A DNA stretch of 64,000 nt. Origin: Patellaria atrata CBS 101060. Lineage: Eukaryota. The stretch's first letter is position 1; each line of letters begins with the position of its first letter. This document shows, in pieces, positions 1,282 through 38,892 of the stretch. The notes under the pieces are model-generated. The model had not been told where the DNA came from. It did not search any database and saw only the letters and a list, made by a program, of their open reading frames with translations. Position numbers and translations under genes: made by a program. The stretch spans positions 1-64,000 of the forward strand of contig MU006123.1 in the NCBI GenBank assembly GCA_010093705.1, in the 5' to 3' direction.

Positions 1282-1895
1282 TATTATAGTTATAGAATAA
1301 AAAGATAATATTATTAGTAAAATAATAATATAAAATATTAGAATGGAATAATTAATATAAAAATTATATAATATAATTAATAGTTAACGGCGCTTAAAAG
1401 ATATTAAGTATAAAGTAAATTTAAGTAAATATAATCGATATTTAATAGTATTTAAGGAGTATTAAGTATAAAATAAACTTAAATAAATATAATCGATATT
1501 TAATAATATTTAAAGAGTATTAAATATAGAATAGATTAAATACTATTAAATTAAATTAAAAGAATTTAAATATTTAAAGATAATTTTTCTTTTATATATT
1601 TAAATTCTTTATAATTATTTTTATTATTAATTTTATCTATAAATTTAAATATTATAGTTTTAAATTTAACTTTATTTATTATATTATTTTTATATAATAT
1701 ATCTTATTTTATTATAAGTATTATTTAAAGTTAAGAAATTAATAAATTATATTAATAACTTAAAATATCTTTATTATATATATCTTATTATTTTATTAAA
1801 TTTATCTTTATAATTAATTATATTAAATAAGAAATTAAATATAGTTTTAAATTTATTTAGTTTTATCTTAATAAATATAGACTTTTATTATAATA
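1282..1895 (+). repeat. 5' LTR of Gypsy A (U3 variant A)
   Basis: Direct repeat of 13849-14462, same length; termini tattata...tataata (RIP form of TGT...ACA). Confidence 0.92.
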
Positions 1896-1941
1896 TTATA
1901 ATTATTATATAATAAGAAAGTGTATAATAAATCTAAATATA

Positions 1942-3982: not shown

Positions 3983-4368
3983 GTTACTTAAGATAGAAAT
4001 AATTAAGAAGTATAACTTCTAAGTTTCTTAAAATCCTATAAAGTAATAATAGAACGTTTTAAGTAGACGTTACTATATATAATAAAAGAATAATAGCGCT
4101 AGTTAATAATAGTATTATCGATTTATTTATCTTATTCTAATAAATAAAAAAAGAAGAGTATATTTTATATAAAATTTAAGAATCTAATCCCGCTACGACT
4201 AGAAAATAATGAAGAAATAGAATATAAACGAGATTTAATTAACTTTAAAACTATATTAATAGAAGTTAATATATAAGGGAAGATAATTATTTAATATATC
4301 TTTATAACTAATCTAGGAGATATAAATATAATTCTAGAAATAGACTAATTATAAATAGTGAACCTAGA

Positions 4369-7300
4369 TATAAAATAGTAATAGTATATAAAATAAAGAA
4401 AAATATAGATTAAAGTATCTAATCTAGAGAAGATTAAAGAAGAATAGTATATATACTTAACTAAGTATTTAGTTAAATATAATATATTTCTTTTAATTTT
4501 AAGGAATCTTAAAGCTAATTATTATATATAGAATAAGATAGTTAACTACCCTCTAAACTATTATTTATTCTAATATTATATACAATTTATTATATACTTA
4601 GCCTTATTAAAACCTTAAAAACTTTATAGAAGAAAAATAAGATAAAAAAGTACTAATATAAATTTAAAACTATATTTTCAAAGTAGAGTATAATAATATA
4701 GATTAGCTATAAGATAAAGATATTTTAGTTAAATTTACTATTCTTCTTTTTAAAAGTATAGAGTATTAAGTATAAGGTATAAATAAATATAAGATATAAA
4801 GTATAAAATATCTCTTAATTATATAATATATAGGTCTAAGTGCTTTTTTATTATATATTAAGAAATAGTTATAATTTTAAGGTTTAAATAGCTAATTTAA
4901 GTAACTTAAATCTATATAAAGATTTTATTACTCTTTAAAAATCGAGTCTCTTTAAAGATTAAGAAATCTCTTTAAAGCTTAAATATATCGTTTATAGATA
5001 TCTTTATTAGTTATCTAATATTAGCTTACTTTAGACTCTTAAAATATATACTTATTAATAAAGAGAGAACTTAATAAAAATTATAATTTATAGAGAAGAC
5101 TTATAACTTTATATTTTTTACACGTGATTTTATAAAGGGAACTTAATAACTTTATATCTTTTAAATTAAATATCTATATCTTATTAAGACTTATAGTTTT
5201 TAAGATATTATTTATAAATTTTAAATAAAAAACTCTCTAAAATTAAGAAGGTTAATCTAAATAATAAAGCGTTATTTAAATAGTATTTTAATTAGACTAT
5301 TAATAGGTTAAATCTTTATAGCAATATATATTATATTAATATTCTTTTCTTATACTTCTTAACGTAGCTAGTAATAGTGCACGTCTATATAATAAAGAGT
5401 TATTTTAAGCTTAAATACTTTAATAATAAATAATCTAATTATTTACTAATTATTATAAAATAAGAGCTATTTATTATCTAAATAAAAGTTTAAAGATTTA
5501 AAGACTTTTTATTATTAAATAAGTTTTATATCTATAATAGATATAGCTATAAGTTTAGCCTTAATAGTTAATTTTATAATATAGTATTAAAGTGTTATCT
5601 TTTAATTAATTAGATCTTTAAAGAGAAAGAAGATATAATCTTATAAACTTTTTCGAGTCACTTAATAATCTATATAAAAGATATTAATTATATTAAAGAA
5701 ATTAAGTTCTTTATAATTCTAAATAAAGGCTATATCTATTATAATTAAGGTATTATAAACGAGTGATTTTAATTTTATATAGTAGAGATAGGCTAGAGTT
5801 TAGTATATAACGTTAATATAAGTTATTATAGGATTAGTTAAGAACTTAGTAAGTTTAGAGTATACTTTTAAGATATTTAATCTTATTACTTTAGCTATAT
5901 AGTTAATTAATCCGACTAATTAAACGTAATATAGATAGTTATTTTCGTTTTTAATTTTATTAAATGGAAGGAGCTCCTTTATCTATAATAACGTTTAAAG
6001 TGATTTTATAAATACTTTTAGAGATAGATATTTATAGTAAATCTTATCGATATAATCTCTTTAATTTAGCTAGATAGAGCTATTATCTCTATTTCTATAT
6101 ATAGTTATATTATAAAAGGTCTTAAGATCTCCTAATAAGTAGATTTTATAGCGTTAAAAAGACTTCCTCTTAAATAAGTTAAGATAAGTAGAGTGGCCTA
6201 GTTTTACTAAAACTACGATATTATCTATATAGAAGAAGATAATAAGTTTATTATCTATCTAAAAGTAAGAAGTATTAAGGACTAGTTTAAAACTAAATTT
6301 ATTTAAGATCTATATAAGATTTTTATACTAAAGAATTAGTGAAATCTTAAGACTATAGAATATATAATATAGTTTCTAAAGATATTACTTATTATTAAAT
6401 TCTTTAAATAGATAATAATAGATAGCTATATTAAGATCTATATTTATAAATATATTAACTATATTATACTACCTAATATCGAGATTAAAGTAGACGGTAA
6501 TAGCTATAAAAAAGCGGAATATCTTAATTACTAGAATAATAGTATAAGTATCTTTAGTAATAGTTTAAAGATCTTCTTATATATAAATTTAAGCTTTATA
6601 CTTAAGAAGATAATCTTTATTATTAAATTTATACTTAAATATCTATAATAGTAGTAAAATCTTATATTTAATAGAGTTAAAATCTTTTTATAAAATTTCT
6701 TTATAAATATCTTTTCTTTTAATAGTTTAAAGTTCTCGAAGAGTGACTATAATAAATCTTTACTTATATAGTTTTATTATTACTTAAATATCTAACTAGT
6801 ATTAAGGTTTAGATAGAAGTTAAGAATAATAGAAGCGATACTTATTATTATTAGTTAAAGATACTATAAAGATAGATTAATAATAGTTAATTACGTAAGA
6901 TTATTTTTAAGATTTAATTCTAGCTCTCTTTAATCCTTTAAAAAGAATATTTAATATACGAAATTAAGTATTAATAATATCTTTATTAATAATAATATTA
7001 GAGCGTTTTCTTTTACTAGATAATTAAGAAGATTAAATAGGTTATTTTAATAAAGTATCTTTTATAATCGTTTAAAAACTAGTTATACTACTTATATTTA
7101 AGATACTAAATAATAGCGGTTAAGACGAATTATCTAATCTAGAAGTAGAATAGTTATTATAATAGATAAAAGTTATTATAAAATCTTACTATTTCTTATA
7201 TTTTAGAGATAAAGTAAAATTAGTAATATCTTTATTCTTAAAAGAGCTTTTAACTTTAAATTCTAGTATTTTAATATTACGAATTATCTTCTTAAATAAT

Positions 7301-10099
7301 TAATTTTAAAGTAAATTATTAGGCTAATCTTTATAAAAAGAATTTTCTTTAAAGAATATATTATAAAAGCGAATTACTTTCCCTTAATAATTCTTATTTA
7401 AGGCTTTAGAGATTTAAATATAGAAAATATTTATTAAATTATATCTAACTAGATAGTTAATATAAATTTAAAATAAAAGCTTATTAAATCTTAATATTAT
7501 ATTCCTTAGAGAAAATACTTTATATCTAAATATATAAAGATATACTAGTAAGGGTTTCTTATTATATACTTTCTTAAATAAAGTATCTTATTATAATAAT
7601 TTATTTAGAGTTCGATTAAGTAAATAACTAGCTATAATATAAATCTTTAAAGTAAAATAGATAGGTAATTTTATAGTAACTATTATTAATTTTAAGCGTT
7701 TAATAAGAGTTTTACTAAATCTTTTTATAGAATTATTTTATTCTAGTATATATAACGCGTAGACTTAAATCTAAATTCCTTCTTTATAGTAATAAGCGAT
7801 TATTAAATCCTTTATTATAAAGCTATACTCTCTCTCTTTATCTATAAGGAGAAAAGTGTATATAATATTAAATTCTCGCTTAAATCTATAGTTTAAAACT
7901 TTAAGTATCTTTAGAAAAATTTCCTTTTCTCGATTAAGAATTAAAAAGATAAAGTTAAACTTAATAATAAGATAATAACTATAAAAGATATATTTATATC
8001 TATTATATTCTATTATATCTAACTTAATAATATTAATAGTAATTAATTTAAATAATTTTATAACACTATATTCTCTTTTAAGTTATTTTAAAATAATATA
8101 ATAAACTTTATTAACTAGATATTATTTATAATAGAATTTTATTAATATTTCTTTAATAATCTTAGCGATACTAATAATTTTAGAACTAAGATAGTTAATT
8201 ACTTCTTTATTAGGATACTTTATAAGAAGATAAGCTTTAGTGATAATAAACTAATATAATTTACGGAAGTTTATAGAGAAACGGTGTTAATTAGAGAAAG
8301 TAAATATTTAGAATAGTCTATAAAATTTTATAAAAGGCGGAGATATTTTAGTTCTATATAAAATAAGCTAATAACCTTTAATTTAAATTAATAAAGTAAT
8401 AATCTCTTTAATTAGGCCTTTTTTATAGAGAGTATTATTTCTAGAGTTAAAATAGATCTTAATAAAGTTAAGCTAATATAGCGAGACTAATAAAATAAAG
8501 AATAGTAGTATTAAGGCGATATATTTAAAAGTAGCCTTTTTAATTCTATTAGAAATTAAGAATAGAATAATTATTTCTTCTTATATTTATATCTATATTT
8601 TTTACCCTTTAGCTAATATTATATTATTATTAGCTACTAATACTTTCTAGTGGAATTTTATAGAGTTATTATAGATATAGATATTTAAAGTAAAGTTAAA
8701 AGTTTAAGAATAAAATAATAGATATTATTAAATAGAGTTTTAATTAAAATTCGACGAATAAATAGTAAAAAATCTATTATATAAGAAAGAATAAAAGCTT
8801 AAATTAACTTTTAATAGATCTAAATTATATACTTTATATTAGATAATTCTAGATTTTTTACTATATTCTCTATTTTTAGTTTATATTTTATTAAAGATTC
8901 CTTTCTTATCTTTAACTTTAAATTTAGTAATTTTCTTAGCTTTTTTAAGATTTTTAATAAATCCTCTTTCTCTAATACTTAAGTTAATATAAGGATATTT
9001 ACTTTAAATATTATTATAACTATCTTTATCTTTAACTAGATAGAGCTTAATTAATTTCTTTTCCCTAAACTTTCTTTTTTTATTATATAGAGAATCCTCT
9101 TTATTAAAAGTTATAAAGATACTTTTATAAATATTAGCTTTCTTTATATATATAGCTCGATAATATTAGAGAAACTTATTAATAAAATAATTAATTATAT
9201 ATTTAAAATTAATTTAAGTAGTAATATTTTAATAATAAGTTTTAATAAAGGTTTCTTAAACTTTAAAGATTCTAATTTCTATAAAAGTAATAAATAATAG
9301 GTTTAAGATACTTAAAAACTCTTATAAAATCTTTTTAAGTATAATATTTAGAGATATCTAGTAAATTTAAGCTTTTTACCTTAATATATATATTTACGAA
9401 GTAATAGCACTAATCTTTAATATTATAATAATATAGATTAAAGAGTTTCTCTTTATTATATTATTATATAATAAGGTCCTTTTAATTTACTTAAATAAAA
9501 GTAAATCGATTATAGAAGTATTTAAGAAGTTTATAAACTAATATAATAATTTTAAAGATAAATAAAAAGGCCTTATCCACTATTTTAATAATATATACTT
9601 TAATAAGACTAAATTTCTTTTATTTATATTTAAATTATTTAAGAGAATATTTATACTAATTAAATATATTTAAGAATAATTCTTTTTTAATAGTAAGTAT
9701 TCTATTCTTAGTATATTTAATAAGTATAATTAGTTTCTATAATAGTTTATAAGTCTTTTTTAGGTTAATAAGATTTTAAAGATTATAAGACTTAATTATA
9801 CTTTTAATTATAAAGATTTAAGGAAGTTAGTTATTTATATTATAAAAAGTAACTTCTTCTAAGATTATCTTAGAATAGGTAAATATAATAGAAATAGAAG
9901 ATAATAGATAAATTAAAGATAATTAATAAATAATTAAATAAGAAATAATTTTAATAAAATATAAATTATATTAGGCTTATAATTATAAGATAGTAATAAT
10001 ATATAAAATAAATAAAAATATAAATTAAAATATTTAATTTAGAGGAAATTAAAGAAAGATAGTATATATACTTAATTAAATACTTAATTAGATATAATA
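4369..10099 (-). mobile_element. Ty1/Copia LTR retrotransposon (RIP-inactivated) nested in pol of Gypsy A
   Basis: 116-bp LTRs 4369-4484 and 9984-10099; TSD ctaga/ttaga; minus-strand motifs SYLLNRTL (integrase YLLNRTP, about 7605-7630), YKA*IYI*EDL (YKARICVRGDL, about 6570-6600) and FFYIDNIVV (YVDD, about 6212-6238), in Copia order INT then RT; host sequence rejoins exactly when it is removed (compare 33925-33960). Confidence 0.92.
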
Positions 10100-13000
10100 T
10101 TAGATATTAATTAAAAGATAAAAAGTATTTAAATTAATTAAAATACTTTATAAAAGGATAAAGTTAAGTGAATAAGATATATTAAGTAAATAGATATTAA
10201 TATATTTATAGAATATATTTTATACTATAAGATAATAAAGATTTATAGAAATAAATTTAAAAGTATAGAAATAGTATAATTTAGAAAAGTAAACGTTAAG
10301 AAGATTTCCGAAGAATTTAAAATACTCGAAAAGTATAATAAGTTTAAAGATTTATTTAAGAAAGATATAACGACTATACTTCTAGATTATTAGATATAAA
10401 ATTATAAAATAATATTAAAAGAAAGTACGAAGCTATAATCTAGCCTAATTTACCTATTAATAAGAAAATAATATAAAGTATTTAAAGAATATATCTATAT
10501 TAACTTAGAAAAGAAATATATATAATCTAACGAAAGTTTAATAGCTTCACCGATTCTATTTATACTAAAAAAGAATAGTAAGCTAAAATTATATATTAAT
10601 TATAAATAATTAAACGACATTATAGTTAAGAATAGATATTTATTACTCTTAATTTTAGAAATTTAAGATAAATTATAAAGAGTAAAATAATTTACGAAAT
10701 TTAATATCTAAGAAAGTTACTATCGAATTAGAATAAAAGAAAACGAAGAATAGAAAATAACTATAAAAATAAGATTTAAACTATATAAATATATAATAAT
10801 ATTATTTAGTTTAATTAACGTTTTAGTAATATTCTAAATAATAATTAATTATATATTAAGAGAATATTTAGACATATTTATAACTATTTATCTAGATAAT
10901 ATACTAGTATATATAAATAGAATATTTAAAGAGTATAGAAAGTATATAAAGAAAGTATTAATAAAACTATAAGAGAAAAGACTTTTAATATATCTAAATA
11001 AATATAAATTCTATATTAAAGAAATAGAATTCTTAGACTTTATTATTACTATTAAAGATATATAAATAGACTTAAAGAAAATAGCCGTAATTAAAGACTA
11101 GCCCACTTTAAAGAGTATAAAAGATATATAATCGTTTTTAAACTTTATAAACTATTATAAAAAGTTTATCTAGAGGTATTTAAAAGTAATAATACCGCTA
11201 TTAGAATTAATAAAGAAGGAAAATATCTTTAATTAAATAAAGAAGATATAGAAAGTATTTAATAAATTTAAGAAAAAATTTATTATAATACTTATCTTAG
11301 TTATATTTAATCTAGAGAAATTAATAGTACTAAAAACTAATATATCTAATTATATATTAAGTATATATATAAGTTAGCTAAACGAGAAAAGACGATTATA
11401 TTCGATAGCCTTTTATTTATAAAAGTTTACGGCTATAAAGCTAAACTATAATATATACGATAAAGAGCTATTAACGATTATCGATATATTCGAATAATAG
11501 AGATTATATCTTAAAGGACCTAAGTATATTATAAAAGTTTAATTAAATTATTAAAACCTAATAAACTTTCTTATAATAAAGAAGTTAAATTAAAGATAAA
11601 TAAAGTAAATAGAAACACTCGTATCTTTTAATTTTAAAATATTCTATAAACTAGAAGTTAAAAATAAATTAACTAATATTATAAATAGAAGATCCAATTA
11701 TCTAGAAAGAATAAAACCGATATATAATATAATATTAAAGAAAGAAAATAACGCGATCACCTATAACTAATTAAAATTAGCCGTAATACTTATAATCGAA
11801 TCTACGAGAGAGTAATAAATTCGCGACGCCTATTAAAAAGATAGTATAATAGAAGAGTTTCGAAAGGGTAATAATTTTAGAGTAATAAAAATAGCTTAAA
11901 AAATATAGCTATATAATAGACTTATATATATATTAACGATACTATAAAAGACTTTTACTAGAGAAATCTATAAAGTACTAGTATATAGTCACTAAAGTAT
12001 TAATAAAATTTTAGAAAAGATTCTAAGAAATTACTATTTTCTAGAGATAAGAAATATAGTAAAATAAATTATCTTAAAATATAATAATTACGCACGAAAT
12101 AAGAGTATAAAATATATATCTTACGAATAAATATAATATATTAAGCTATTAAAGCGAGTATAGAACTTAATAATAATAAACTTTATTATAGATTTACTAG
12201 AATCTAAAGATCTAGCGATAAAAGTAAAGTATAATATAATATTAATTATTATAGAACGATTAATAAAATTCACTTACTTTATACTAATAAAGATAATAAT
12301 AATAATATTATAAGTAATAATATTAGTGATAAAAATAATACTAATAAATCACTAAATATCGAAAGAGATTATCTTAGATAGAGATAAGCTATTTAAATTA
12401 ACGTTTTAATAAACTTTAATATAAAGTTTAAGGGTAAATTATAAGTTATTAATAAGCTTTTATCTATAAATAAATAGCTAAATTAAGAGAATAAATTAAT
12501 CTCTAAAATAATATTTACGTAATTATATAAATTACTAGTAAAATAATTAGATAGAGCTACTACTAATAATATAATTCGTATATAATAACGCGAAATTCGA
12601 TATTATAAAGATTTCACTCTTTTATATAAACTATAGTTTCGAATTAGGAGTATATCGTGAGTCGAGAGTAGTTTAAAGTATTTTATAAGAAGTAATATTA
12701 AAAGTTAAGTAAATTAAGGAATTATATATATAGCTATCGCGAGATATAACTTTCTAGATAATAAAGGTTATAAAGTATAGTAATTAATATAAGTCGTTAA
12801 AATCGATCTTTAAAAAGGGAAATAAAGTTTACTTATTATAGAAAAATCTTAAGATAAAATAACTTAATAAGAAACTAGATTATAAAAAAATTAAACTCTT
12901 TAGAATTAAATAAGTTAAAGGGAAAATTAATTATAAGTTAGAATTACTTAAAAGAATAAGAATATATCTAGTTTTTTATATATTACTACTAAAACTAATA

Positions 13001-13166
13001 TATATTAATACTAAACTTTAAATATAATCTATAGAATTAAAAGAAGAAAATATATATAAAGTAGAATATATTTTAAATCTATAATAAATAAATAGTTAAT
13101 AGAAGTATTTAGTAAAATAGAAAGACTATAAATATATAAATAATATATAGAAACTATTTAAGTATT

Positions 13167-13727
13167 TTATAAACTATTATTAAGGTCTTAAATAGTTTTA
13201 TCGCTAAAATTAAGGATTTTTAAATCCTCGAAAGTAGAGAAATCTAATCTAAACTAGTTAGAAAGAGATACCGCGGAAGAAGAAATAAAGATATCCGAAG
13301 AAGCTAGTTATCTTTTAACTTTTCACTTTAAAGTCTTTAATTTATTATAAGATATAATCTTATAAAAAGCTATATTCCACTTTTTATATTTAAATAGCTA
13401 AAGCTATTTCGTTAAACACTTTTTACGAGTAAAAGTAGCGTAAACGCGAGTATAAATCTTATTATAAGCCTAATAAATTTTAGATAGACGAAGGCGAAAT
13501 ATAGCTTTTTATAATTTAAGACGATTCTACTTAACCTTAATTATTATAAGATTACACTTACGACCCGTAAATAAATATTCACTATAATAACTAGTTTTTA
13601 AATTAATATAATAGACGAAATCGCGAGAACGATAATTAGAGTAAAAGGTTAGTATTAAAGAACTAAAGAAAAGGACTCGCGCGGAATAATAATAACGATA
13701 AACTATTAAACTTTTAGCTTTTAGCAT
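13167..13727 (-). pseudogene. Antisense accessory ORF of Gypsy A: Zn2Cys6-like cluster plus coiled coil (187 codons, RIP stops)
   Basis: Intact ATG; YSNY-RSRDFV-Y-YINLKTSY-YSEY-LFTGRK-C gives C-x2-C-x6-C-x8-C-x2-C-x6-C if TAY derives from TGY; all internal stops explicable by C>T/G>A; no frameshift. Confidence 0.8.
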
Positions 13728-13848
13728 TTTTAGGAAAAAAAGGGTCGAAAAAAGCTTATAATATAATAAAAGTAATAGGACTAAACTTTATAATAAAAAA
13801 GTAACGATATAATATTTTCGAGACGAAAGCTATAAGAGAGGGAGATAC

Positions 13849-14462
13849 TATTATAACTATAAAATAGAAAGATAATATTACTAGTAGAACGATAGTATAA
13901 GATACTAGAATAGAATAACTAATATAAAGATTATATAATATAATTAATAGTTAACGGCGCTTAAAAAGTATCGAGTATAGAGTAAATTTAAATAAATATA
14001 ATCGATATTTAATAACGCTCGAGGAGTATCGAGTATAAAGTAGACTTAAGTAAACGTGATTAATATTTAATAATACTTAAAAGGTATTAAGTATAGAATA
14101 GATTAAATACTACTAAATTAAACTAAAAAGATTTAAATATTTAAAAATAGTCTTTCCTTTATATATTTAGACTCTTTATAGTTATTTTTACTATTAATTT
14201 TATCTATAGATTTAAATATTATAATTTCGAATTTAACTTTATTTATTATATTATTTCTATATAATATATCTTATTTTATTATAAATATTACCCGAAGTTA
14301 AGAAGTTAATAAGTTATATCGATAATTTAAAATATCTTTATTATATATATCTTATCACTTTATTAAATCTACCTTTATAGTTAATTATATTAAGTGAGAA
14401 GCTAAACGCGTCTCTAAATTTATCTAACTTCGTCTTAATAAATATAAACTCCCGTTATAATA
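13849..14462 (+). repeat. 3' LTR of Gypsy A
   Basis: Repeat of 1282-1895, preceded by a polypurine tract. Confidence 0.92.
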
Positions 14463-15865
14463 TATAGTTAGTTAAAGTCTATTAAATCTTTCTAATTTTA
14501 TCTATTTATAGCTTTTATTATCTTCTTTTTATATTTAATTATAATATTCTTCTATTCTTCCTTTTTCTATTTACGTTTATATAATTTATTATCTATTCTA
14601 ACTATTAAGATTATTATATTTTATATAATTATTAGTCTTTTATAATAAATTTACTTATTCTTTATTTTTTCCTTTAAATCTTAATAGAAAGCGATTATTA
14701 ATAATTTATTAAATTATTCTAATATTAATACTATTTACTAAAATATAATTATATATTTCGAAGTTAATTCTTTTTATCTAAATTCTTAAAACTTTCTTTT
14801 AACTATTTATTATTTATCGACTTTCTTAAAGACGTTCTTAAGCGTTTCTTTAAACTTTAAAAATAATTTAAAAATCTTTATTATTTTATTTTTTTAGTGT
14901 TCTTCACTATTTTTAAAATAGTCTTATATAATAGATTCGAACTATTTTAGAGCGTCTCCTTTAAAGTATATTAATATATTAGGTATATATTTATTATTAT
15001 CTATTAACCTTATTCTCTTATAATAAATCTTTATTTAGATTAAAAATCCTCTTAACTTATCTTATTTTCTATTATATAATACGGGTTTTTTAACTTTCAC
15101 GGTTCACTTTTATAGTAATAATAATTATATAGTAAGTTATTTAAGCTAATTTCTAAGTTTTTAAATTATCTTTTTATTTTTAAGTTTATTAATATATTTA
15201 TATAATGTTTAGATATATTTTTTATCTATTTTTATATTAATTATAGTTAATAATATCGTGTTTAAGTTCTATTATATATTTCTTTATTATATAATAGTTA
15301 TAATATTATAATAAGAGTCTATACTTATTAAGATAAAATTAGATAAATTTAGAAACACGCTTAACTTTTTATTTAATATAATTAACTATAAAGATAAATT
15401 TAGTAAAATAATAAAATATATATAATAATAATATTTTAAATTAGCGATATAATTTATTAACTCCTTAACTTTAGATAACGCTTATAATAAGATAAGACAT
15501 ATTATATAAAAATAATATAATAAGTAAAGTTAAGTTTAAAACTATAATATCTAAATTTATAGATAAGATTAATAGTAAAAATAATTATATAGAATTTAAA
15601 TATATAAAAAAAAGATTATTCTTAAATATTTCTATTTTTTATAGTTAATTTAATATTATTTATATTATTTAATACTTAATATCTTTAAATACTTTAATTA
15701 TTAATTTTATTATATAATCTTTTATTTATATTATTTAGTATTTAATACTTTTAAGTATTTTAATTACTAATCTTATTATATAATCTCTATATTAATTATT
15801 CCGTCCTAATATTTTATATTATTATTTTACTAGTAATACTATCTCTTTATCTTATAATTATAATA
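14463..15865 (-). mobile_element. Truncated sibling Gypsy: 5' LTR (15304-15865, fourth U3 variant) plus start of gag
   Basis: Reverse complement matches gag of A (about 1900-2735) and the shared R-U5; cut off at the end of A's 3' LTR. Confidence 0.85.
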
Positions 15866-16963: not shown

Positions 16964-17588
16964 TATTACGGCTATAAGTTATAAAAATATATAGATAATA
17001 AATAAGAGGAAAGAAGGAATACTATTTAGGAAAATTATAGATAAAATAAGTAATAACGAATTATATAATTTAGATATTTAGATATTTAGACGTTTAGATT
17101 ATAAAGAACGACTAAATAACTAAACGATTAGAACGACTAGGAAGAATTATATAATTTAAATATTTAGATATTTAGATATTTTAGTTATAGAGAATAATTA
17201 AACGATTAAATAACTAAAATAACTAGAATATAGATAATTAAATTAGTTATAAAGGATAAAAATATTTAAAAATAATCTTTTCTTTATATATTTAGATTCT
17301 TTATAATTATTTTTACTATTAATTTTATCTATAAATTTAGATATTATAGTTTTAAACTTAACTTTATTTATTATACTATTTCTATATAATACGTCTTATC
17401 TTATTATAAGTATTACCCGAAGTTAAGGAGTTAACGAGTTATATTATTAACTTAAAATATCTTTTATTATATATATTCTATCACTTTACTAAATCTATTC
17501 TTATAGTTAATTACGTTAAATGAAAAGCTAGATACGTTTTTAGACTTATCTAGCTTTATCTCGATAAGTATAAACTCCCGTTATAATA
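16964..17588 (+). repeat. 5' LTR of Gypsy B (U3 variant B, 625 bp)
   Basis: Repeat of 37711 onward; the 3' part is shared with LTRs A and C, the 5' part is different. Confidence 0.9.
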
Positions 17589-19276
17589 TTATAATTATCA
17601 CGTAGTAGGAAAGCGTATAATAGATTTAAATACGATATTATTAGCTATAGCTAATATAAAAACGGATAAAAAATATATTTAAGTGTTATATAAATATATT
17701 AATAAATTTAAAAGTAAAAAGATAGTTTAAAAATTTAGGAATTAACTTAAATAATTTATTATATAGTTACTTTTACTATAAAGATAAATCGCGAAAATTA
17801 AAAAACCTATACCGTATAATAGTAAATGAGATAAGTTAAAAGGATTCTTAACTTAAATAAGAATTTATTATAAGAAAATAAGATTAATAGATAATAATAA
17901 ATATATATTTAATATATTAATATATCTTAAAGAAGATATTTTAGAATAATTTAAATCTATTATATAAGACTATCTTAAAAATAATAAAGAATATTAGAAA
18001 GACGAGATAATTAAGATCTTTAAGTTATTTTTAAAATTTAAAGAAACACTTAAAAACGTCTTTAAAGAAATCGACGAATAATAAATAATTAAAAGAAAAC
18101 TTTAAAGACTTAAATAGAAAAAGTTAATCTTAAAATATATAACTATATTTTAATAAGTAGTATTAATATTAAATTAGCCTAATAAATTATTAATAATCGC
18201 TTTCTATTAAGATTTAAAGGAAGAAGTAAAGAACGAGTAAATTTATTATAAAAGATTAATAACTATATAAAACGTAATAACCTTAATAGTTAAAATAGAT
18301 AATAGATTATATAAGTGTAAATAGGAAAAGAGAGGATAGAAGAATATTATAATTAAATATAAAAAGAAAATAATAAAGGTTATAAATAAATAAGATTAAA
18401 AAGATCTAATAGACCTTAATTAACTATAATAGATAAAATAAAAGAAGTTAAAGAAATAATAATAATTTATTTAAGAAAAAAAAGAGCGTTTTATAAATAA
18501 AATATATTTATAATATAAAGAAATAGAATATTTTAAGAAAAACTATTTATAGAAGATATAATTATCCTCGCGATATAATATTATAACGGGAGTCTATACT
18601 TATCGAGACGGAACTAGATAAGTCTAGAAACGCGTCTAGCTTTTTACTTAACGTGGTTAACTATAGAGATAGGTTTAGTAAAATAATAAGATTTATATAA
18701 TAAAGATACTTTAAGTTATTAATATAACTTACTAACTTCTTAACTTTAAGTAATACTCACGATAAGATAAGACGTATTATATAGAAATAACGTAATAAGT
18801 GAAGTTAAGTTTAAAACTATAATATCTAAATCTATAGGTAAGATTAATAGTAAGAGTAACTATAAAGAATTTAAATATATAAGGAAAAGATTATTCTTAA
18901 ATATTCTTATTCTTCTATAGCTAATTTAATATTAATCGCTCTACTCGCTCTACTCGCTCCTATATATATCGAGTATATTAATTACCTTAATTACGTTAAT
19001 CGTTCTACTCGCTCTACTCGCTCCTATATACGTCGAGCACGTCGAGTACCCCGATTACGTCACGTGACTTACCGTCCCGCGATAGTTATTCCGCTCTATC
19101 GTTTTATACTAACGTTCTATTAGTAATACTATATCTTCATTTTATAACTATAATACTATCCTCTCTTTTTATAGCTTTTATCTTAAAAGTATTATATTAT
19201 TACTTCCTAGCTATAAAGTATAGTCCTACTACTTTTATTATATCGTAAGCTTCTTTTAACTCTCTCTTTATCGAAG

Positions 19277-19828
19277 ATACCGAAAGCTAAAAACTCGATA
19301 GCCCGCCGTTATCGTTAAATATTAAAGATAAACTTCTTTAGTTCTATAATATCTTCCTTTTATTTTATTTATCGTTCCTATAATTTTATTTATTACGTTA
19401 ATCTAAAGATTAGTCGCTATAGTGAATATCTTCGCACTATTTATAAATATAATTTAGTTTTATCTAAAGAGGAGTTCGTTTATATAGATAATCTTATATC
19501 TTCCCTTTATTCTTAACTCGATTTTATTAAGGAGAAATAAGAGCTTCTTTAAATATAATAGTCGTTTATTTTCTCTAATATTTATCGCCTTTATAAGTAG
19601 CTCCGCTTAGTTAAATCTTATTACGGTAAGCTACTTACTCGCGAATTTATATCTATTAAGAAGTTAAAGATTTTAAAACGAGAAGTTAAAAGATAATAAA
19701 CTTTCTTAAGCGTCTTTATTTTCTTTCTCGCTATATCTTCTTCTAGTTAGTTTAAGTTAGATTTCACGGGTCTAAAAATCCCTAGTTTTAACGATAAAAC
19801 TATTTAAAACCTTAATAGTAATTTATAA
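19277..19828 (+). pseudogene. Antisense accessory ORF of Gypsy C: Zn2Cys6-like cluster plus coiled coil (184 codons)
   Basis: (ATA)PKAKNSIARR...YFIY-RSYNFI-Y-YVNLKISR-YSEY-LRTIYK-Y-NLV; candidate Cys at codons 29/32/39/48/51/58 as in A; later RLYK*LRL...REFISIKKLKILKRE. Confidence 0.78.
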
Positions 19829-20262
19829 AGTATTTAAATAGTTTCTATATATTATTTATATATTTATAGTCTTTCTATTTTATTAAATACTTCTATTAAC
19901 CGTCTATTTCCTATAGATTTAAGATATATTCTACTTTATAGATATCTTCTTCCTCTAGTTTTATAGATTATATTTAGAGTTTAATATTAGTGTATACTAG
20001 TTTTAGAAGCGATATATAGAAAACTAGATATATCTTTATTTTTTTAGATAATTCTAATTTATAATTAACTTTCCCTTTAATCTATTTAACTTTAAATAGT
20101 CCGATTTTCTTATAGTTTAGTTTCTTATTAGGTCGCCTTATCTTAAGATTTTTTTATAATAAGTAAACTTTATCTCTCTTTTTAAAGGTTAATTTTAACG
20201 ATTTATACTAGTTACTATACTTTATAGCTTTTATTATCTAAAAAGCTATATCTTATAATAGT

Positions 20263-23200
20263 TATAATAACTATTATCTATCGATCTTTCTACTTTCTTA
20301 TATTTAGCGGGTTTATTTATATTTAGTTTAATTATATTATTAGGAAATTTTATTAACTAATAAAGCTACTTAAGTTTATAATTATTATTTATAATTCTCT
20401 CTTTTTCTTAACTTAATCTCTTTACTTAATAATAGTTATATATAGTTAATATTAATAGATTAGCTCTTAACACTATAAATATTATATTAAATTAAGTTTA
20501 ATATAATTATAGCCTCTAGAAAGGCGATATAATATTTTAATTAAAACGTGATATTAGTCTAGTTAATAACTAATTACGGATAATTAAAATATCGATAAGT
20601 AGCTAGCTTTATTAATATAAAGAGAGAATAAATACTAAGATTTACTAAAAAGTAAAGACTTATTATAATCACTTACGAAAAGTATTCGTAGAGTGGGAAA
20701 GAGTAGAAATTAAAGATAGCTAAACTTAATAATATTAGAGAGTTAGAGAGTGAAACGATCCACGATAACCCCTTAATAACGATACTAAAATAGTAATAAA
20801 ACGATAAAAGGAAGTAGAGAAGCTTTAAATATTTAAAATAAAGCTTAATAATACTATTAATAAGAATTATTATCGAAGAACTTATAATAGATAATTTCTA
20901 AAAAATACGGAATAATCTTAAAAATAATTTTAAAAGTAAAGTATAATATATAGAGACGATTACTAGCCTAAAAAAAATCCTTTATAATATAGAAGACGTA
21001 ATAAAATAGATAGAGAAGGAACTATTCACGATTATAATAGAGTATATTAAGATAATATTATCTATAATAGCACGATATCTTTAGGTTAAGAAGATTATCG
21101 ACTTATATAATAAGATATAAAAGGATTTATAGTTAAAAATAGATATTCTTAAGAAGAATAAGATAATTATTATAGACTTTTAAAATAAAGTTAAAACACT
21201 ATAAGAATAGTTATAATAGGCTAAAAAATAATATTTTATCTACTTTATATAATTCGAATCTAAAACTTCTAGGGCTAGCCGTAAAAGATTAAAGAAATTC
21301 CCTAATCTATCTATCTTAACTAATAATAAAGATCTTACTTATAAAGTCTAGAAGAGTTAGATAAAAGATAAATTCGAGATTAATATTAATTAATATAAAA
21401 TAGAACGGGCTAAGATAGCTTATATAAAGATATAAGTTAGAGATTATATATCCCTCTATCTATACTCTCTTATAGAAGTTAAAGCCGAAGATAATAAATT
21501 ATTTATAATAAAAGAGTTATATAAATTCTTAGATTAAGTTTTAAAAGATTCTTATAAACGTTTAACGGCTAAAGATAATCTAAAAAAAATTAAAATAGGG
21601 CTATTTAATAAACTTTACTAACTTTTAAGCTAAATTTATACGCTTAGCTATTAAAGTTAAGGTTCTACGAGACTAATAGAAGAAAGAGATTCACGATAAA
21701 CTATATAGCTTTTTACGTTAGTTAATATCTCTTTAAAGTGTTAACGATAGTATTATCTTTAAAGTCTACTATAAATAGGCTATATTATAAGCTCGAGGTC
21801 TCGAGAAGTTAAGCGAGGAGAGTAAGGAACGAAATAAGAATAAAAATAAGAAATCTCTTAATATAATACTAAGTTTTACCTTAATTATAATAAAGACGAT
21901 AATATTTTAAGCCGTTTTAGCTATATCTTTAATAATAAATATATCTATTCTTAAGACGATAATATTCTTAGGCTCGTGTTATAATTATAATAAACTAGGC
22001 TATCGAGCTATAGACTATAAATAATTAAAGATTAGTAAGATAGCTAAAATTAAAGTAATAATTAAAGAGGAGTTTAACTAGAATTTAGATTTAGAAAATA
22101 AATAATTTTAAGTAAAAACTCCGCTTTAGAGTTAATAGTTAAAGTATTATAAACTTTAATTAACGAGTTAATCACGGAAAAACTATTCGTTATACTCTAT
22201 AAAATCTTAAAGAATAGTATCGCTATATAATTTAGAGCGTTAATTAATATTAGAGCTTAAAGCTATATACTACTATATAAGAAATAGTTACCGGTACTAA
22301 AACGATAATTAGAAATCACCGTTATAAAGATAAAGTAAAAGATTATTATTAGGTCTTTTAATAGTATAAAAGCGATACTAATTATCTAGCTATTTAAAGT
22401 AAATATTATACTAGATAATTATAGATAAATAGTACCTATCTTAGTAATAAATATAGGTTATCGCGATATACTTATTAGTATAGAATAGTTTATAAAGATA
22501 GATAGATTACCTAATTATTAAAACTAGTATATCTTCTAACCCCCTTAAGTAGTAGTAAAAGAAGATTAATAAAGAGATATTATTATTCTAAAATTTAAGC
22601 TATAGATATTATCTAACCTAGAATATTAAATAGATCTAAAACGATAAGACTAGAAGTTTAATAAGAGAGAATAATATTAACTACGCTATTAATAGGGGTA
22701 GAAGAAGAAGTCGAAGCTATTTAAATAGAAGATATTTATCTCTTAATTTAAAGAGATAAAGTTAGGTATTTAGAAGATAAATACGGAGTTATAAGATAAA
22801 TTAGAGGTTAAAGTAGAGCTTAAAGATAATCTAAAGTCTAGACTACTCTAATAAGTTAATATATTAAGCGTAAAGCTTAATATTTATCTAGTTAATATCG
22901 ATAATTACCTATAAAATATAAAGCGGTAAGATATAGTTATTAGAGCTATAAGTTTATACGAGATTAACTCTCTAATATAAGATAAGTTAGATAAAAATCC
23001 ACTTCTAAATAATAAAGAGAATCTTAAAGAGCTAATACTTTAAAAATTACTATCTAAATATTACTATCTAGCCCACGTGTTCTTTAAACGTGTATTAGAT
23101 ATATTAGTACTTTATAAAGACGAGATTAACTATAATATCGTACTCGATAATAATAATAATTTAGCGTTAAGTCCTCTTTATAATATACTTATCGAGTATC

Positions 23201-26200
23201 TATAACTAATAAAGAACTATCTAAAAGAATACCTTTAAAAGAGTTTTATTATACTAAGTGACGTATTATATATTTTACTAATATTATTCGCGAAGAAACT
23301 TAAAGAAGGATAGAGATTCTATATTAACTATTATAAGTTAAATCTTATTATAAAGAAAGATAAGTATCTATTATCCTTAATTAAAGAGACGTTAACTAGA
23401 TTAAGAACGGTTAAGATCTTTATAAAATTAGATATTAGATAAACCTTCTATTAAATATAGATAAAAGAGTTAATAGAAGATTTTACTATATTTTAAATAT
23501 AGTATAATTCTTTTAAATATAAAATATTACCCTTTAGCTTATATAATAGGCTAATATTATTCTAATAGTTTATTAATAAGGTTCTTTAGAAATATTTAGA
23601 TAACTTTTATATAGCCTATATTAATAATATTCTAATCTACTCTATCTATCCACTAGAATATCGAGTTTATATTATAAAAGTACTAGAAGCGTTAAACGAG
23701 GCCGGGCTATAAGTCGATATTAAGAAAAGCGAGTTCTATATCACTAAGATAAAATTTTTAGGCTTTATAATTAGTATAGATAGAATCACGATAAATCTTA
23801 ATAAGATAGAAGTGATACGAAACTAGGCCTTATCGATAAATATTAAAGATATATAATTATTTAATAGCTTTTATAACTTTTATCGGAAATTTCTAGAGAA
23901 GTTTAGAAGAGTGATTAAACTATTAATATTATAAACTTATAAGGGCTTTAAAGGTTACTTAAAGATCTAAAATATAAGGCTTTTAAAAAAGTAAAAGTAT
24001 TAGTCTTATCTAATTAAGTTTTAGCCCACTATAACCCCTAGTTAGAAACGCGGGCTAAAATAGATTATAGTAATAAAGTAGTTACCGGCGTTCTATTATA
24101 GAAATATAAAGATATATAAAGACTAATAATCTTCTAATCTAAGTCTTTAAGCGAGATAGAGATAAAATACCTAATTCACGATAAAGAGATACTCGCTATC
24201 GTCTAAGTCCTTAAGGAATAGAGAAGTATACTAATCGAATTATAGTAAATACTCTTTATAGTGATTATAAATTATAAAGTATTAGAATACTTCTCTATAA
24301 AGCGTCTACTAAACGTTTATTAAACTTAATAAAGTGAAAAGCTAGCTAACTATAACTTTAAGATAATTTACCGGCCTAGAGTATAGAATATAGTAGTAAA
24401 TACTCTCTTTTAGAAGTAAGAAGACCTAAAAACGGCTAAAGAGAAAGATATTATAATAAGGACTTAAATAATAATAATATTAAAGATAATTATATCGCTA
24501 GTAAAGTTATTAGAAATACTATAAAGAAGTTTATAAAAAGTATTAACTAAACTAACTAAGATAGTCTTAATTAAAATCCCTTAAAAGAACGGTATCCTTA
24601 AACTATTAATACTTACTACTAAAGAAGAAAAAGATAATAGGTTTAGAGTAGAAAGAAGAGATCTAAATATACCCCTTTAAGATAAAGGATATATTTAAGA
24701 AATTCCGCGGTAACTTTAGAGTAACGAAACTTAGGATTAAATATAAATTAAAGAAATCTTTAAACCACCTAAATAAGCTAATAAAACGGCCAGGGTTAAA
24801 GAACCGATAAAAGAGCTTAGGATCTATAATAAGATAGCCGGGCTAGCGGAACCTAGATAGATAAAAGAGAATAAAGTAATATTAATTAAGTTAATTAATT
24901 AAATAATAGCCGTAAATAGAAGTTATAAGTTATTAAAGACCTTCTAAAAATAAGTTAAAGTATCCGAGAATAAATAGAAACTACGAAACGGCCTATTAAT
25001 TTATTATAATAGATTAATAGTACTAGATATAAATAACTACTAGACCTACTTAATTAAAGAAACTTATAACGCCTATATTATAGGCTATCTAGGTATAAAA
25101 AAGACGAAAGAATTATTATAATATTAATATTACTAGTTAGAACTATTTAATAACGTGGATAGATATATCTAGAATTACTATATATATCGAAAAACATATA
25201 TATCTCGAGATAAGACTCTAGAATTACTAAAACCACTATCTATTAAAGATAAATATTAATAATATATTTTATTCGATTTTAAGTCGTTTCTAAAAGATAA
25301 GTATAACTTTAAAGTCGCTTTTATAGTTATAAATAAGCTTAGAAAGAGAGTTATCTCTATATTATATACGAAAAAGGTCACCGTAACTCTAATAGTAAAA
25401 CTATACTTTAAATATATTTTCCGGATCTACGGTATACTAGAGATAGTAACGTCGGATAAAGACCCTTAATTTATCTTAACCTTTATAGACGAGCTCTATA
25501 AATTAATAGGCGTTAAGTAGAAGCTATTAATAGTATACTATTTATAGATAAATAGGGGTATAAAGATTATTAATTAATATATTAATCTACGATTAAGGCT
25601 AGCGGTAAATTATTACTAAGATAATTAGTTAGAACTACTACTAGCTATAAATTTCGTATAAGCTACGCTTTTATACGAATTTATAGGAATATCGCCGTTC
25701 GAATTAGAATTCGGATACTAGCCGTAGATACACTTTAATTAGCACGAATATATAGATTTAAACACCTATAAAACCGTTAAAAAACGTATAAGTCGAGAAG
25801 AAGCCTAATAATTTATAAAACGTACTTATAATACTATTAAATAGACTAGAAAGAATCTTTCTCGTACTTAGATTACTTAGGCTAAAGCGGCTAATAAGCA
25901 TTAAAAAGAGCTAGACTTTAGACCGGGCGATTATATCTTCGTAATAAGAAAAGGTTAAATAATAGATAAACTAAGTGTAAAGCTAAATTACTAGAACGCC
26001 GGGCCGTATAAAATTATTAGTATAAAAGACTATTTTTATATTATAGACCTACCTTCTAATATAAAAATAGATAAAGTATTCTATATAGATCGACTATAGA
26101 AAGCTTCTATAGACCCCCTACCGGGGTAATAGCTAGAACCACCACTATTAATAAAGATAAATAGAGAGTCGGAGTACGAAGTTAAAGAGATATTAGTAAG

Positions 26201-26768
26201 CCGAATCTTTTATAAAAAACTCGAGTATAAAGTTAACTAGATCGGCTATAATCTAGACAATACCTAGTATCCGGTATATAACTTTATCGGATACTTATAT
26301 AAGATACGGAGCTTCTATAAATAACGACTAGACGAAGCCGGGCCGTTAAAACGACTAGATAAATAACTCCGAGTGTATTAAATAGATAACTCTAAACTAG
26401 AGCTATATATTAATAATAATATTACTAAAAAGAACGGGCCTATATAAGCTTAAAGGCGTCGAAAACGTCTAAAATAAAATAACTTTATAAAAGATAATAT
26501 TATATTAAAATTAAGGCCGATTTCTATTTTAAGAAAGGGGATAATATAATAATTATTATCTATCGATCTTTCTACTTTCCTATATTTAGCGGGTTTACTT
26601 ATATTTAGCTTAATTATATTATTAGGAAATTCTATTAGTCGATAAGGCTACTTAAGCTTATAATTATTATCTATAACTCTCTCTTTTTCTTAACTTAATC
26701 TCTTTACTTAGTAGTAGTTATATATAGCTAATATTAATAGATTAGCTCTTAATACTATAGATATTATA
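20263..26768 (+). mobile_element. Ty3/Gypsy chromodomain LTR retrotransposon D (different family, 6.5 kb), nested in the integrase region of C
   Basis: 224-bp LTRs 20263-20486 and 26545-26768; TSD atagt/atagc; polypurine tract aagaaagggg; zinc knuckle CYNYNKLGYRAIDY near 21977; RT *RFYINYYKLN near 23311 and AYINNILIY near 23614; chromodomain EYEVKEILVSR...LEYKVN*IGYNLDNT*YP at about 26172-26273. Confidence 0.93.
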
Positions 26769-29700
26769 ATAGCTATATATATAATTTCTTAATTTATTTA
26801 GCTTTTAACGTTACTTTTTATAAAATACTTTAAATTATTCTTAGCTTATAATATACTTCTAGTTTAAAACTATAGTTTATATAGAAGGGTGAAATCTTTA
26901 TAGTATTAGATTTCGCGTTATTATATATAAATTATACTATTAGTAATAGCTCTATCTAGTTATTCTACTAATAATTTATATAATTATATAAGTATTATTC
27001 TAGAGATTAATTTATTCTCTTCGTTTAGCTATCTATTTATAGATAGAAGCTTATTAATAGCTTATAATTTACCCTTAAACTTTATATTAGAGTTTATTAA
27101 AACGTTAATTTAAATAGTTTATCTTTATTTAAGATAATCTCTTTTAATATTTAATAATTTACTAGCACTATTTTTATTACTAATACTATTATTTATAGTG
27201 CTATTATCGTCGTCTTTACTAATATAAAGTAAGTGAACTTTATTAATCGTTCTACGATAACTAATATCGCGTTATACTCTACTCCTATCGTTAGATTTTT
27301 AGATCTTAATAGATCTATAATAAAGTTTATCGTTATTAAGTTCTATACTCGCTTTAGTAGCTTAATATATTATATCTATTTATAAGATATATGCTTTACA
27401 CTCTTATTTTATATATAGTTATTATATTTTAAGATAACTTACTTCACTATACTCTTTATTCTTAGGAAATAGTAATTCCTTAAAATCCTTTTTAAGATTT
27501 TATTAATACCTTAGTAACTATATACTAGTGCTTCGTAGATCTCTTTAGTAAGAGTCTTTTATAGAATTATTAGTATATATATAAGTTTATCGTATAACTA
27601 TATTTTTTAAGTTATTTATATTACTCTAAAATTATTACTCTTTTAGAACTTCTCTATTATACTATCTTTCTAATAGGTATTATAAATTTATTATTCTCTC
27701 GTGAATTTAATTATTAGTATTATAGCTAATTTTAGCTAATTATAGATAATCGCGTTATTTTCTTTCTTTAATATTATATTATATACTAATTTCGTTTCTT
27801 CTAGATAGTTAAATCTTCTATTTATAGTATTAGCTAGTCTATTTTCGACTTCTAGTTTATAGAATATTTTAAAGTTAAAGAATATAAGTATTTCTATCTA
27901 TTTTACTTATCTTCGATTTAACTTCTTTATTATAAGGAAGTTTATTAAGTTTTAATAATCTAATTAAACTTTTATAGTATACTTAAGTCTTTTAAAGTAT
28001 AATCTCTATTATTCGAATACGTCGATAATCGCTAATAGCTCTTTATCGTGTATATCGTAGTTTAGCTCTATAGCCGTAAACTTTCGTAAGTAAAAGATTA
28101 CCGGATATAATTATTCTTTCTCGTCTAGCTAATTTATATATACACCTAGTATATAATTAAATATATTAGTTTTTATTACTATTAATTTCTCTAAGTTAAA
28201 TATAATTAAGATAGATACTATAATAAACTTTTTCTTAAATTTATTAAATACGTCTCGTATCTTCTCTATCTAAATAAAGGTATTTTCCTTCTTTATTAAT
28301 TCTAATAGCGGTGTTATTATCTTTAAGTACCCCTAAATAAACTTTCTATAATAGTTTATAAAACTTAAGAACGATTATATATCTTTTACGCTCTTTAGCG
28401 TTAGCTAATCTTAAATTATAGCTATTTTTTTTTAGGTCTACTCGTATATCTTTAATAGTAACGATAAAGTCTAGAAATTCTATTTCTTTAATATAGAATT
28501 TATATTTATCTAGATATACTAGAAGTCTCTTTTCTTATAATTTTATTAATACTTTCTTTATATATTCTTTATACTCTTCGAGTGTTTTATTCGTATATAC
28601 TAGTATATTATCTAGGTAAGTAGTTATAAATATATCTAAATACTCTTTTAATATATAATTAATCACTACTTAAAACGTTACTAAAGCGTTAATTAAATTA
28701 AATAATATTATTATATATTTATATAGTTTAAATTTTATTCTTATAGCTATCTTCTATTCTTCGCCTTCTTTTATTCTAATTCGATAGTAACTATCTCGGA
28801 TATCGAATTTCGTAAACTATTTTATTCCTTATAATCTATCTTAGATTTCTAAGATTAAGGGTAACGGATACTTATTCTTAATTATAGTATTATTTAACTA
28901 TTTATAGTTAATATATAATCTTAGCTTATTATTCTTCTTTAGTATAAATAGAATTAGTAAAGTTATTAGACTTTCACTAAATTATATATATCTCTTTTCT
29001 AAGTTAGTATAGATATATTCTTTAAATACTTTATATTATTCTCTTATTAACGGGTAAATCGGTCTAAATTATAATTTCGTACTCTCTTTTAGCATTATTT
29101 CGTGATCCTATGTCTAATAATTTAGAAATATAGTCGCTATATCTTTTTTAAATAAGTCTTTAAACTCGCTATACTTTTTAAGTATCTTAGATTCTTTAAA
29201 AACCTTTTTAACGTTTACTTTTCTAAGCTATACTACTTTTATACTTTAAAGTTTATTTCTATAGATTTTTATTATCTTATAATACGAAATATATTCTACG
29301 GGTATATTAGCGTCTATCTACTTAATACGTCTCGTTCACTTAACTTTATTCCTTTATAAAATATTTTAATTAATTTAAATATTTTTATCTTCTAATTAAT
29401 ATTTAGGTTTATTATTTATAATTAGTCTATTCCTAAAATTATATCTATATCTCCTAGATTAGTTATAGGAATACGCTAAGTAATTACTTTCTCTTATATA
29501 TTAACTTCTACTAATATAGTCCTAAAGTTAATTAAATCTTATTTATAATCTATTTCTTCGTTATTTCCTAGTTATAACGGGACTAAATTCTTAAATTTTA
29601 TATAAGATATATTTTTCTTCTCTATCTATCGAGATAAGATAAACGAATTAATAGCGTCGCTATTAATTAGCGTTATCGTTCTCTTACTATATATAGTAAT

Positions 29701-38315: not shown

Positions 38316-38892
38316 TGTTACGGCTATAGAACGAAGATATAGTATTATTAATAGAACGATAATATAAAGCGACGGAACGGAATAACTATCGCGGGACGGT
38401 AGGTTATATAATATAATTAGGATACTCGACGTGCTCAATATATATAGGAGCGAGCGGAGCGAGTAAAGCGATTAGCGTGATCGAGGTAATCGATATACTC
38501 GATATATACTAGAGCGAGTAGAGCGAGTAGAGCGATTAATATTAAATTAACTATAAAAGGATAAGAATATTTAAAGATAGTCTTTCCCTTATATATTTAG
38601 ATTCTTCGTAGTTATTTTTACTATTAATTTTACCTATAGATTTAGATATTATAGTTTTAAACTTAACTTTACTTATTATATTATTTCTATATAGTACGTC
38701 TTATCTTATTATAAGTATTACTCGAAGTTAAGAAATTAATAAGTTATATTATTAATTTAAAGTATCTTTATTATATATATTCTATCACTTTACTAAATCT
38801 ACCTTTATAGTTAACTATATTAAGTGAGAAGCTAGACGTGTTTCTAAACTTATCTAATTCTATCTTAATAAGTATAAACTCCTATTATAATA
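38316..38892 (+). mobile_element. Solo LTR of C type inserted in the 3' LTR of B
   Basis: 577 bp like the C LTRs; begins with unmutated TGTTACGG; perfect TSD ataag (38311-38315 and 38893-38897). Confidence 0.92.

Follow-up and report, generated by a model that had tools for sequence, protein, structure and literature searches.

The main finding of this analysis is that, in a family of fungal Ty3/gypsy chromoviruses, a gene lying antisense between the chromodomain and the 3' LTR is paired with an array of short sites in the U3 region, the class of the zinc cluster that the gene would encode agreeing with the array motif in every copy in which both could be classified. This match suggests that the element carries its own switch, a protein that would bind the array. 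The likeliest explanation, which we rate at about an even chance, is that an element-encoded dimer of Zn2Cys6 type would bind the array in its own U3 and tune transcription from the LTR, matched modules of gene and array having been recombined.

Nested elements of the window and the extent of their divergence

Two parts can be distinguished in the window (the whole stretch of 64,000 nucleotides that was analysed): an AT-rich part (positions 1-40000, GC 4-27%), which a purine/pyrimidine self-comparison and dinucleotide ratios identified as nested, RIP-damaged LTR elements, and a remainder of gene-rich fungal DNA. The RIP indices were 1.31 (TpA/ApT) and 0.08 ((CpA+TpG)/(ApC+GpT)) in 1282-38900 versus 0.81 and 1.12 in 41000-64000. 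Comparison in purine/pyrimidine code, which ignores the transitions introduced by RIP, separated elements A, B and C, a solo LTR and a fourth copy, D. Elements A, B and C all belong, as copies damaged by RIP, to a single fungal Ty3/gypsy chromovirus family; the features are as follows.

1282..14463, + strand: element A, from the purine/pyrimidine self-comparison
1282..1896, + strand: 5' LTR of A, its U3 variant identical in kind to that of the 3' LTR of A
10100..13230, + strand: shared pol region of A, ending in the chromodomain and aligning with 33935-37060 of B and with C
13158..13727, - strand: antisense ORF of A, broken (11 stops in 190 codons), cluster at 13554-13643, class D3
13849..14463, + strand: 3' LTR of A, containing the array of A
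13941-14109: array in the 3' LTR of A, three 58-nt units with 3+3 sites, gaps of 7 and 10 on both sides, offset 31
15303..15865, - strand: LTR of the fourth, truncated copy D, with an A-like U3 start; gag stub to 14463
16964..about 38915, + strand: element B, from the purine/pyrimidine self-comparison
16964..17588, + strand: 5' LTR of B, with U3 at about 16964-17240 and shared R-U5 to 17588
17061..17068, + strand: RIP-damaged position of the TCACGTGA box in the 5' LTR of B, the box that precedes the array in undamaged LTRs
17071..17139, + strand: array unit 1 of B, left sites at 17071, 17079, 17087 and 17096, offset 38
17109, 17117, 17125 and 17134, + strand: reverse-complement right sites of array unit 1 of B
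17157..17225, + strand: array unit 2 of B, 86 nt after unit 1 and with the same geometry
36993..37595, - strand: antisense ORF of B, broken (14 stops in 201 codons, the terminal one included), cluster at 37422-37511, class D2, helix of 80 residues
37711..38915, + strand: 3' LTR of B, interrupted by a solo C-type LTR at 38316-38892
32448..18578, - strand: element C, nested in B
31871..32448, - strand: 5' LTR of C, with the same U3 variant as the 3' LTR of C
19277..19837, + strand: antisense ORF of C, broken (13 stops in 187 codons), cluster at 19361-19450, class D3
18578..19155, - strand: 3' LTR of C, first array unit at 18997-19057, offset 37

The placing of array unit 1 of B is supported by an undamaged LTR on contig C8, from which B differs by a single purine/pyrimidine mismatch in 200 nt. 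Assignment to Ty3/gypsy rests on TG...CA LTRs, a polypurine tract and 5-bp target duplications, which match for B, C and the solo C-type LTR but not in the flanks of A. Moreover, undamaged copies from the same genome contain Retrotrans_gag, Ty3_capsid, RT_RNaseH, Integrase_H2C2, SH3_Tf2-1 and Chromo above cut-off in gypsy order, with rve below cut-off, in a Pfam scan run without the RT core; the domain names for the pol region of A are those of one such copy, P0160. Other insertions are present: a second, unrelated gypsy-type element with a 224-nt duplication at its flanks is nested in C at 20490-26545, and its stop-ridden frame at 24000-26501 matches RT_RNaseH and SH3_Tf2-1. An insert in A (4485-10014) has a minus-strand translation that resembles, by eye, a RIP-damaged copia-type pol, with no Pfam match at E<=0.001. 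The gene-rich part contains ordinary host genes (Anp1 family, 45496-46650; ribosomal protein L5, 50680-51564; methyltransferase, 57564-58190) and a 1168-codon frame without clear family at 52841-56347.

A previous reading of the window from its sequence alone had proposed that the three elements share gag-pol and the end of the LTR and differ from just after the chromodomain through U3, and sliding-window transversion counts confirmed this. Between A and B there were 0-5 transversions per 150 nt over 10100-12949, 6-8 over 12950-13249, 20-35 over 13250-14149 and 0-1 after 14150, so that divergence among the three begins near the end of the chromodomain and ends at about 14130 in A. In the antisense ORF it reaches about 25 transversions per 100 nt; U3 regions of different elements differ by 27-46 transversions in 210-254 aligned nt, and the last 330 nt of the LTR by 0-3. 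The two LTRs of one element do carry one U3 variant, as had been claimed (0, 1 and 0 transversions for A, B and C), but because reverse transcription is expected to produce this it adds no evidence.

The same reading had treated B as the outlier and the divergent block as a single cassette. Here the picture is more complex. A and C indeed have near-identical clusters (5 transversions in 90 nt, versus 25 for A-B and 24 for B-C) and similar U3 starts (4 in the first 80 nt, or 3 against the solo C-type LTR, versus 10-13 for A-B and 14-15 for B-C). However, the likeness does not extend to the wider block: over the 60 nt before the cluster there were 9 transversions for A-B and 11 for A-C, over the 60 nt after it 14 and 21, and A-C divergence peaks at 25-26 per 100 nt over 13329-13528. 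Since B is the outlier only in cluster, leader and U3 start, and not in arm or helix, the block is a mosaic in which arm, cluster, helix and array are separate modules. A pair of metagenome loci (L136 and L137) is, judged by its sequence, an independent repeat of the split between a shared backbone and a divergent ORF and U3: the two are 97-100% identical over 201-5200, their ORFs have 52% amino-acid identity with pS 0.66-0.71, versus 0.058 in pol, and U3 is different where R-U5 is the same.

The antisense gene and its predicted product

In the window the ORFs of A, B and C contain 11-14 stops and have Tyr at five or six of the six cysteine positions. A search with 12 damaged copies recovered two intact proteins, one of which in turn matched 33 places in the same genome, and at eight of these the matching stretch was free of stops. 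None of the 33 matches was an undamaged D3 gene, so that class D3 is judged from damaged copies alone. In the protein a basic arm precedes the six-cysteine cluster; a long helix follows, closing with a conserved acidic motif, and then a tail, acidic and in part unstructured, which overlaps the end of pol. Cluster spacing in undamaged copies is C-x2-C-x6-C-x8-C-x2-C-x6-C, which falls within the Zn2Cys6 (PF00172) pattern C-x2-C-x6-C-x5-12-C-x2-C-x6-8-C. All six cysteines are at least 90% conserved in 120 sequences; the second loop has six residues in 100 of 113 clusters, and the Cys2-Cys3 loop varies. The Pfam Zn_clus gathering cut-off was passed by two of eight proteins, with a Zn_clus match at E<=0.05 in 38 of the 120 sequences. 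For the cluster model (pLDDT 87.5) the ten best fold matches were all Zn2Cys6 DNA-binding domains, the best being Put3, Leu3 and Gal4 at E 0.07-0.3 and none at or below 0.001, and a PDB sequence search gave coiled-coil and weak Put3/Lac9 matches alone, none below E 0.01. This Pfam and fold evidence fits a Zn2Cys6 domain but is weak.

A comparison can be made with Gal4, Put3, Leu3 and Ppr1, in which a six-cysteine cluster is likewise followed by a dimerisation helix. Gal4 forms a parallel dimer, and Gal4-type proteins combine a basic recognition loop with CGG half-sites. That combination was not found here: the recognition loop is variable and the candidate sites are not based on CGG (0-4 incidental CGG per array). 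The protein also differs in having about 190 residues and a predicted antiparallel dimer. The non-CGG sites and the variable Cys2-Cys3 loop, both unlike Gal4, count against our main explanation.

Members of the protein family number 401 representatives at E<=0.001, those with names being ascomycete hypothetical proteins, and an atlas search returned three ascomycete clusters at 0.92-0.95 without a family name. The helices of intact relatives are most often 62-63, 69-70 or 73-76 residues long. Among 78 metagenome loci collected through their integrase the gene was present in 23, in all 23 antisense and just past the chromodomain. It occurred in 22 of 24 loci with at least 49% integrase identity versus one of 54 below that value (17 of 19 versus one of 33 when at least 700 nt of downstream sequence was available), and is thus nearly confined to the closer clade; viral contigs yielded no relative of the integrase. 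A midpoint-rooted tree, with weak deep nodes, was built from 33 of 79 proteins (34 chosen loci minus L160 and L182, which contain stops, plus one copy from the genome under study). In this tree L144 and L145 nest among gene-bearing elements yet have no antisense gene, and they retain after the chromodomain a GGTTCC/GGAACC array of 3+3 sites at offset 29; they are possible dependants on a gene supplied in trans. In L138 (1937-2494) and its relatives L139-L142 and L152, an in-frame stretch after the cluster resembles a fungal intron by the look of its sequence and, if real, would imply a spliced antisense transcript, which is a hint only. In L134, L137, L138 and L148 the 3' LTR joins primer site and gag directly, as in collapsed, tandem or one-LTR circular forms.

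That the ORF is a real zinc-cluster/coiled-coil gene under purifying selection is supported by pN/pS values of 0.00-0.07 over the first 60 codons in all ten D2 pairs and by a chromodomain-to-LTR length that is a multiple of three in 35 of 41 copies. Between D1 and D2, pS is 0.47-0.63 and pN 0.20, and pN/pS is 0.3-0.5 between cluster classes versus at most 0.07 within them; positive selection in place was not seen. The pol values take no account of five comparisons involving the D1 copy, which were not in frame. The suggestion that the variants had diversified rapidly where they stand is therefore not sustained. Near-saturated synonymous sites on a shared backbone mean instead that the variants are old and were moved or kept by recombination; on this sequence evidence the backbone is homogenised and the gene/U3 alleles are old, and the proposal that variants were swapped on a shared backbone is borne out by mosaicism and synonymous divergence alike. 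Old alleles on a homogenised backbone resemble balancing selection and, together with the relatives that lost the gene and kept the array, would be in keeping with a protein that acts in trans against all subfamilies, either as a repressor or as a dominant-negative factor controlling copy number, the variants being escape alleles. We consider this very unlikely, given that no excess of amino-acid change accompanies the class differences; it overlaps with our main explanation, which allows either sign of regulation.

What the protein would act upon is a separate matter. No match to a Fungal_trans domain was found in the protein, nor a clear activation domain, only the acidic tail noted above. 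This would suit a protein acting elsewhere, at LTR ends of the cDNA or on chromatin, in nuclear import, target choice or the damping of silencing, with the array match incidental or secondary, and such roles have been proposed for plant antisense ORFs in the part of the literature covered by PMC7264820. However, the fold neighbours are all DNA-binding domains of transcription factors and the arrays lie directly upstream of a TATA-like motif, and an action away from the promoter seems to us unlikely.

U3 arrays and their pairing with gene classes

A catalogue of 73 LTR starts, a lower bound, was drawn from 311,589 fetched bases. Undamaged U3 regions follow one order: a 12-base common start, one of two proximal segments, the TCACGTGA box, a variable array and a constant TATA-like block. 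Each array unit consists of three or four six-base sites followed, at a fixed offset, by an equal number of reverse complements. The motifs are TGGACG, TGGTCG (with or without TGGACG) and TGCTCG, and the offsets of the types examined are 38, 29, 38, 40, 31, 37, 29 and 37; in its U3, B has two units of the mixed type. On G000 contigs C1, C3, C25, C26 and C29 there are solo LTRs (L131, L126, L123, L130 and L124) that are undamaged, carry TGCTCG arrays and lie between intact target duplications. All seven array types of this genome scored above all 387 shuffles. In external families, whose gene-bearing members have arrays of similar design with other motifs, this held for nine of 13 with the gene versus three of 33 without it (Fisher p 1e-4), a comparison of one clade with the rest, made over a span of 520 nt that may be too short for some long U3s. 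Under a stricter rule the two groups were not told apart (1/10 gene-bearing versus 2/33 other families), and a first score (9/14 versus 7/43), for which families were unmerged and the span missed the L144 array, was superseded.

Forty 3' ends from this genome were classified, C33 being left out for its aberrant length. D1 clusters occurred with GGACG/CGTCC arrays (5/5), D2 clusters with CGACC-bearing arrays (25/25 readable) and D3 clusters with GCTCG/CGAGC arrays (3/4); seven ends were unreadable or unclassified (five D2 unreadable, one D1-like and one D3 with unclassified arrays). Cluster class thus matches array motif in 33 of 33 classifiable copies, with no cross combination. Reassortment, which would have told against the proposal of a co-evolving regulator and promoter module, was looked for and not seen; of that proposal, the real, selected gene and the link between class and motif stand, while the single cassette and diversification in place do not. 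These 33 matches represent three cluster lineages at about 250-450 nt from the array, so that physical linkage alone could yield the concordance.

Indeed, a somewhat improbable but serious reading is that only linkage is at work, the 3' block having been moved by template switching and the arrays being RNA fold-backs or host-factor sites with no cognate protein. The block is contiguous, and the U3 of both LTRs derives from the 3' end. Some arrays do fold as hairpins (z -5.1, -5.3 and -2.7 against shuffles, with spacers paired in the mixed array), and in L144 and L145 an array persists without the gene. Crapaud of Podospora, moreover, has U3-only subfamilies on a shared backbone, and 'antisense', 'zinc' and 'palindrom' have no match in the main text that describes it (PMC10787394). 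On the other hand, the uneven gaps (7,9; 8,8,9; 7,10) recur in the same order left and right, repeated rather than mirrored; mixed GGACG/CGACC arrays mismatch their site pairs and are yet present in 12 of 25 D2 copies; and shuffled sequences fold as well as the array of A (z -1.6). Cluster and motif are common to A and C though the arm between cluster and U3 differs at 11 of 60 positions, and one genome holds three motif classes in one geometry.

Leader and U3 start each differ by about one transversion between D1 and D2, so that crossovers could occur at those places. Of the 24 pol-side sites within 700 nt, 18 were common to both helix classes in 35 copies; part of this sharing may be homoplasy among damaged sequences, and recombination may be less frequent in a short island flanked by dissimilar blocks. 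D2 left sites include both GGTCG and GGACG, the latter being also the motif of D1. Across about 450 nt of nearly constant sequence, D2 helix length fits array subtype in 24 of 25 copies, counts that come from few lineages: helices of 62 residues go with offset 29 (12/12) and those of 80-91 residues with offsets 38-40 (12/13). Exceptions are a C2 copy (80 residues, offset 29) and possibly a C4 copy (62 residues, mixed-type sites at the start of the 5' LTR). Locus L070 (G000:C2:2302363-2309700) has an A-type 5' LTR, A-like pol, a D2 gene, a GGTCG-type 3' LTR and N gaps inside; it is either an ectopic recombinant or an assembly chimera, and was rejected as a replicated recombinant since its target duplication has no match.

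The homodimer model scored 0.58 (best control 0.01; pLDDT 86), with runs agreeing in at least 96% of contacts. Among solved structures, 21 of 30 pairs and none of 23 single chains attained the score mark; in eukaryotes 17 of 29 pairs did so, but only one of seven that had no older solved relative, and the pass may reflect resemblance to known coiled coils. In the model the register is antiparallel (residue 57 with 81, 46 with 92) and each cluster contacts residues 97-109 of its partner. With a rise of 1.5 Å per helix residue and 3.4 Å per base pair, helices of 62-91 residues would span 27-40 bp, which is the range of the offsets. As a ruler across families the helix was rejected (rho 0.11, p 0.73, n 12, the offsets of five external or evenly spaced arrays being hand-read or ambiguous); it fits only within D2 and for A. 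We put forward only tentatively, as a doubtful refinement, that the element's own sequence-specific regulator is an antiparallel dimer placed over half-sites about 27-40 bp apart, in which the cluster would set the motif, the helix the spacing, and recombination would deal matched modules. If true, such modules would be private regulatory channels among the subfamilies of one element.

Proposed mechanism and relation to known systems

Our working hypothesis is that a clade of fungal chromoviruses carries a third gene, antisense between chromodomain and 3' LTR, whose product, a small Zn2Cys6-type protein with a long helix predicted to dimerise, would bind the paired six-base sites in its own U3, between the CACGTG box and the TATA-like motif. 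Binding would tune transcription from the LTR, with either sign of regulation. As gene and U3 are adjacent at the 3' end of the genomic RNA, a single template switch would move both, and a switch at the end of pol followed by normal strand transfer at R could place old gene/U3 versions on a common gag-pol and R-U5. Selection for a matched protein and array would then hold cluster and motif together while other modules shuffle. Template switching itself is established retroelement biology and is treated in section 8 of PMC10787394.

Among retroviruses, element-encoded regulators that act on the LTR from a gene near its 3' copy are a probable working analogue, although the proteins are unrelated and the function of the fungal one is deduced. 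Tat, Tax, HBZ and foamy Tas are retroviral transactivators or antisense genes with shown function. Tat and the HTLV antisense promoter are discussed in the part of PMC7264820 bearing on such genes. In position and orientation the gene resembles brtn, known from the Boty-like (BcGypsy1) elements of Botrytis cinerea and Sclerotinia (Zhao et al., 2011, as cited in PMC7264820, PMC8365987 and PMC4227169), fungal gypsy elements with a chromodomain in which brtn runs antisense after pol and before the 3' LTR; a zinc cluster, a function and a link to U3 variants are not given in the citing passages. Plant antisense 3' ORFs (Grande gene23, RIRE2, Retand and PvRetro13) likewise share position and orientation, have their own antisense transcript and unknown function, and have been compared with retroviral accessory proteins; they belong to other protein families, and a matching LTR array is not described in that account (PMC7264820). 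In crapaud, subfamilies are set apart by U3 and have R, U5 and the greater part of the internal region in common, the two LTRs of some copies differ, and template-switch recombination and promoter selection have been proposed; the element is drawn with two ORFs, and its internal region is reportedly independent of LTR subfamilies (PMC10787394). As far as these sources go, an antisense gene at this position (brtn) and U3 subfamilies on a shared backbone (crapaud) were known; no report of a zinc-cluster antisense gene paired with U3 arrays was found in the main texts of a mainly open literature.

The function of antisense genes in LTR retrotransposons and the cause of U3 diversification on a shared backbone are given as open questions in PMC7264820 and PMC10787394, respectively. 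The chromovirus family described here joins the two and makes both testable, and intact proteins of two classes, defined arrays and external families with other motifs provide a ready matched/mismatched design. If binding proves not to be cognate, the gene would still be a widespread, unnamed accessory gene with its 401 representatives at E<=0.001. If it is cognate, the family would supply a fungal transposon's example of a transactivator-LTR pair, together with a natural series of small zinc-cluster proteins whose specificities are not for CGG.
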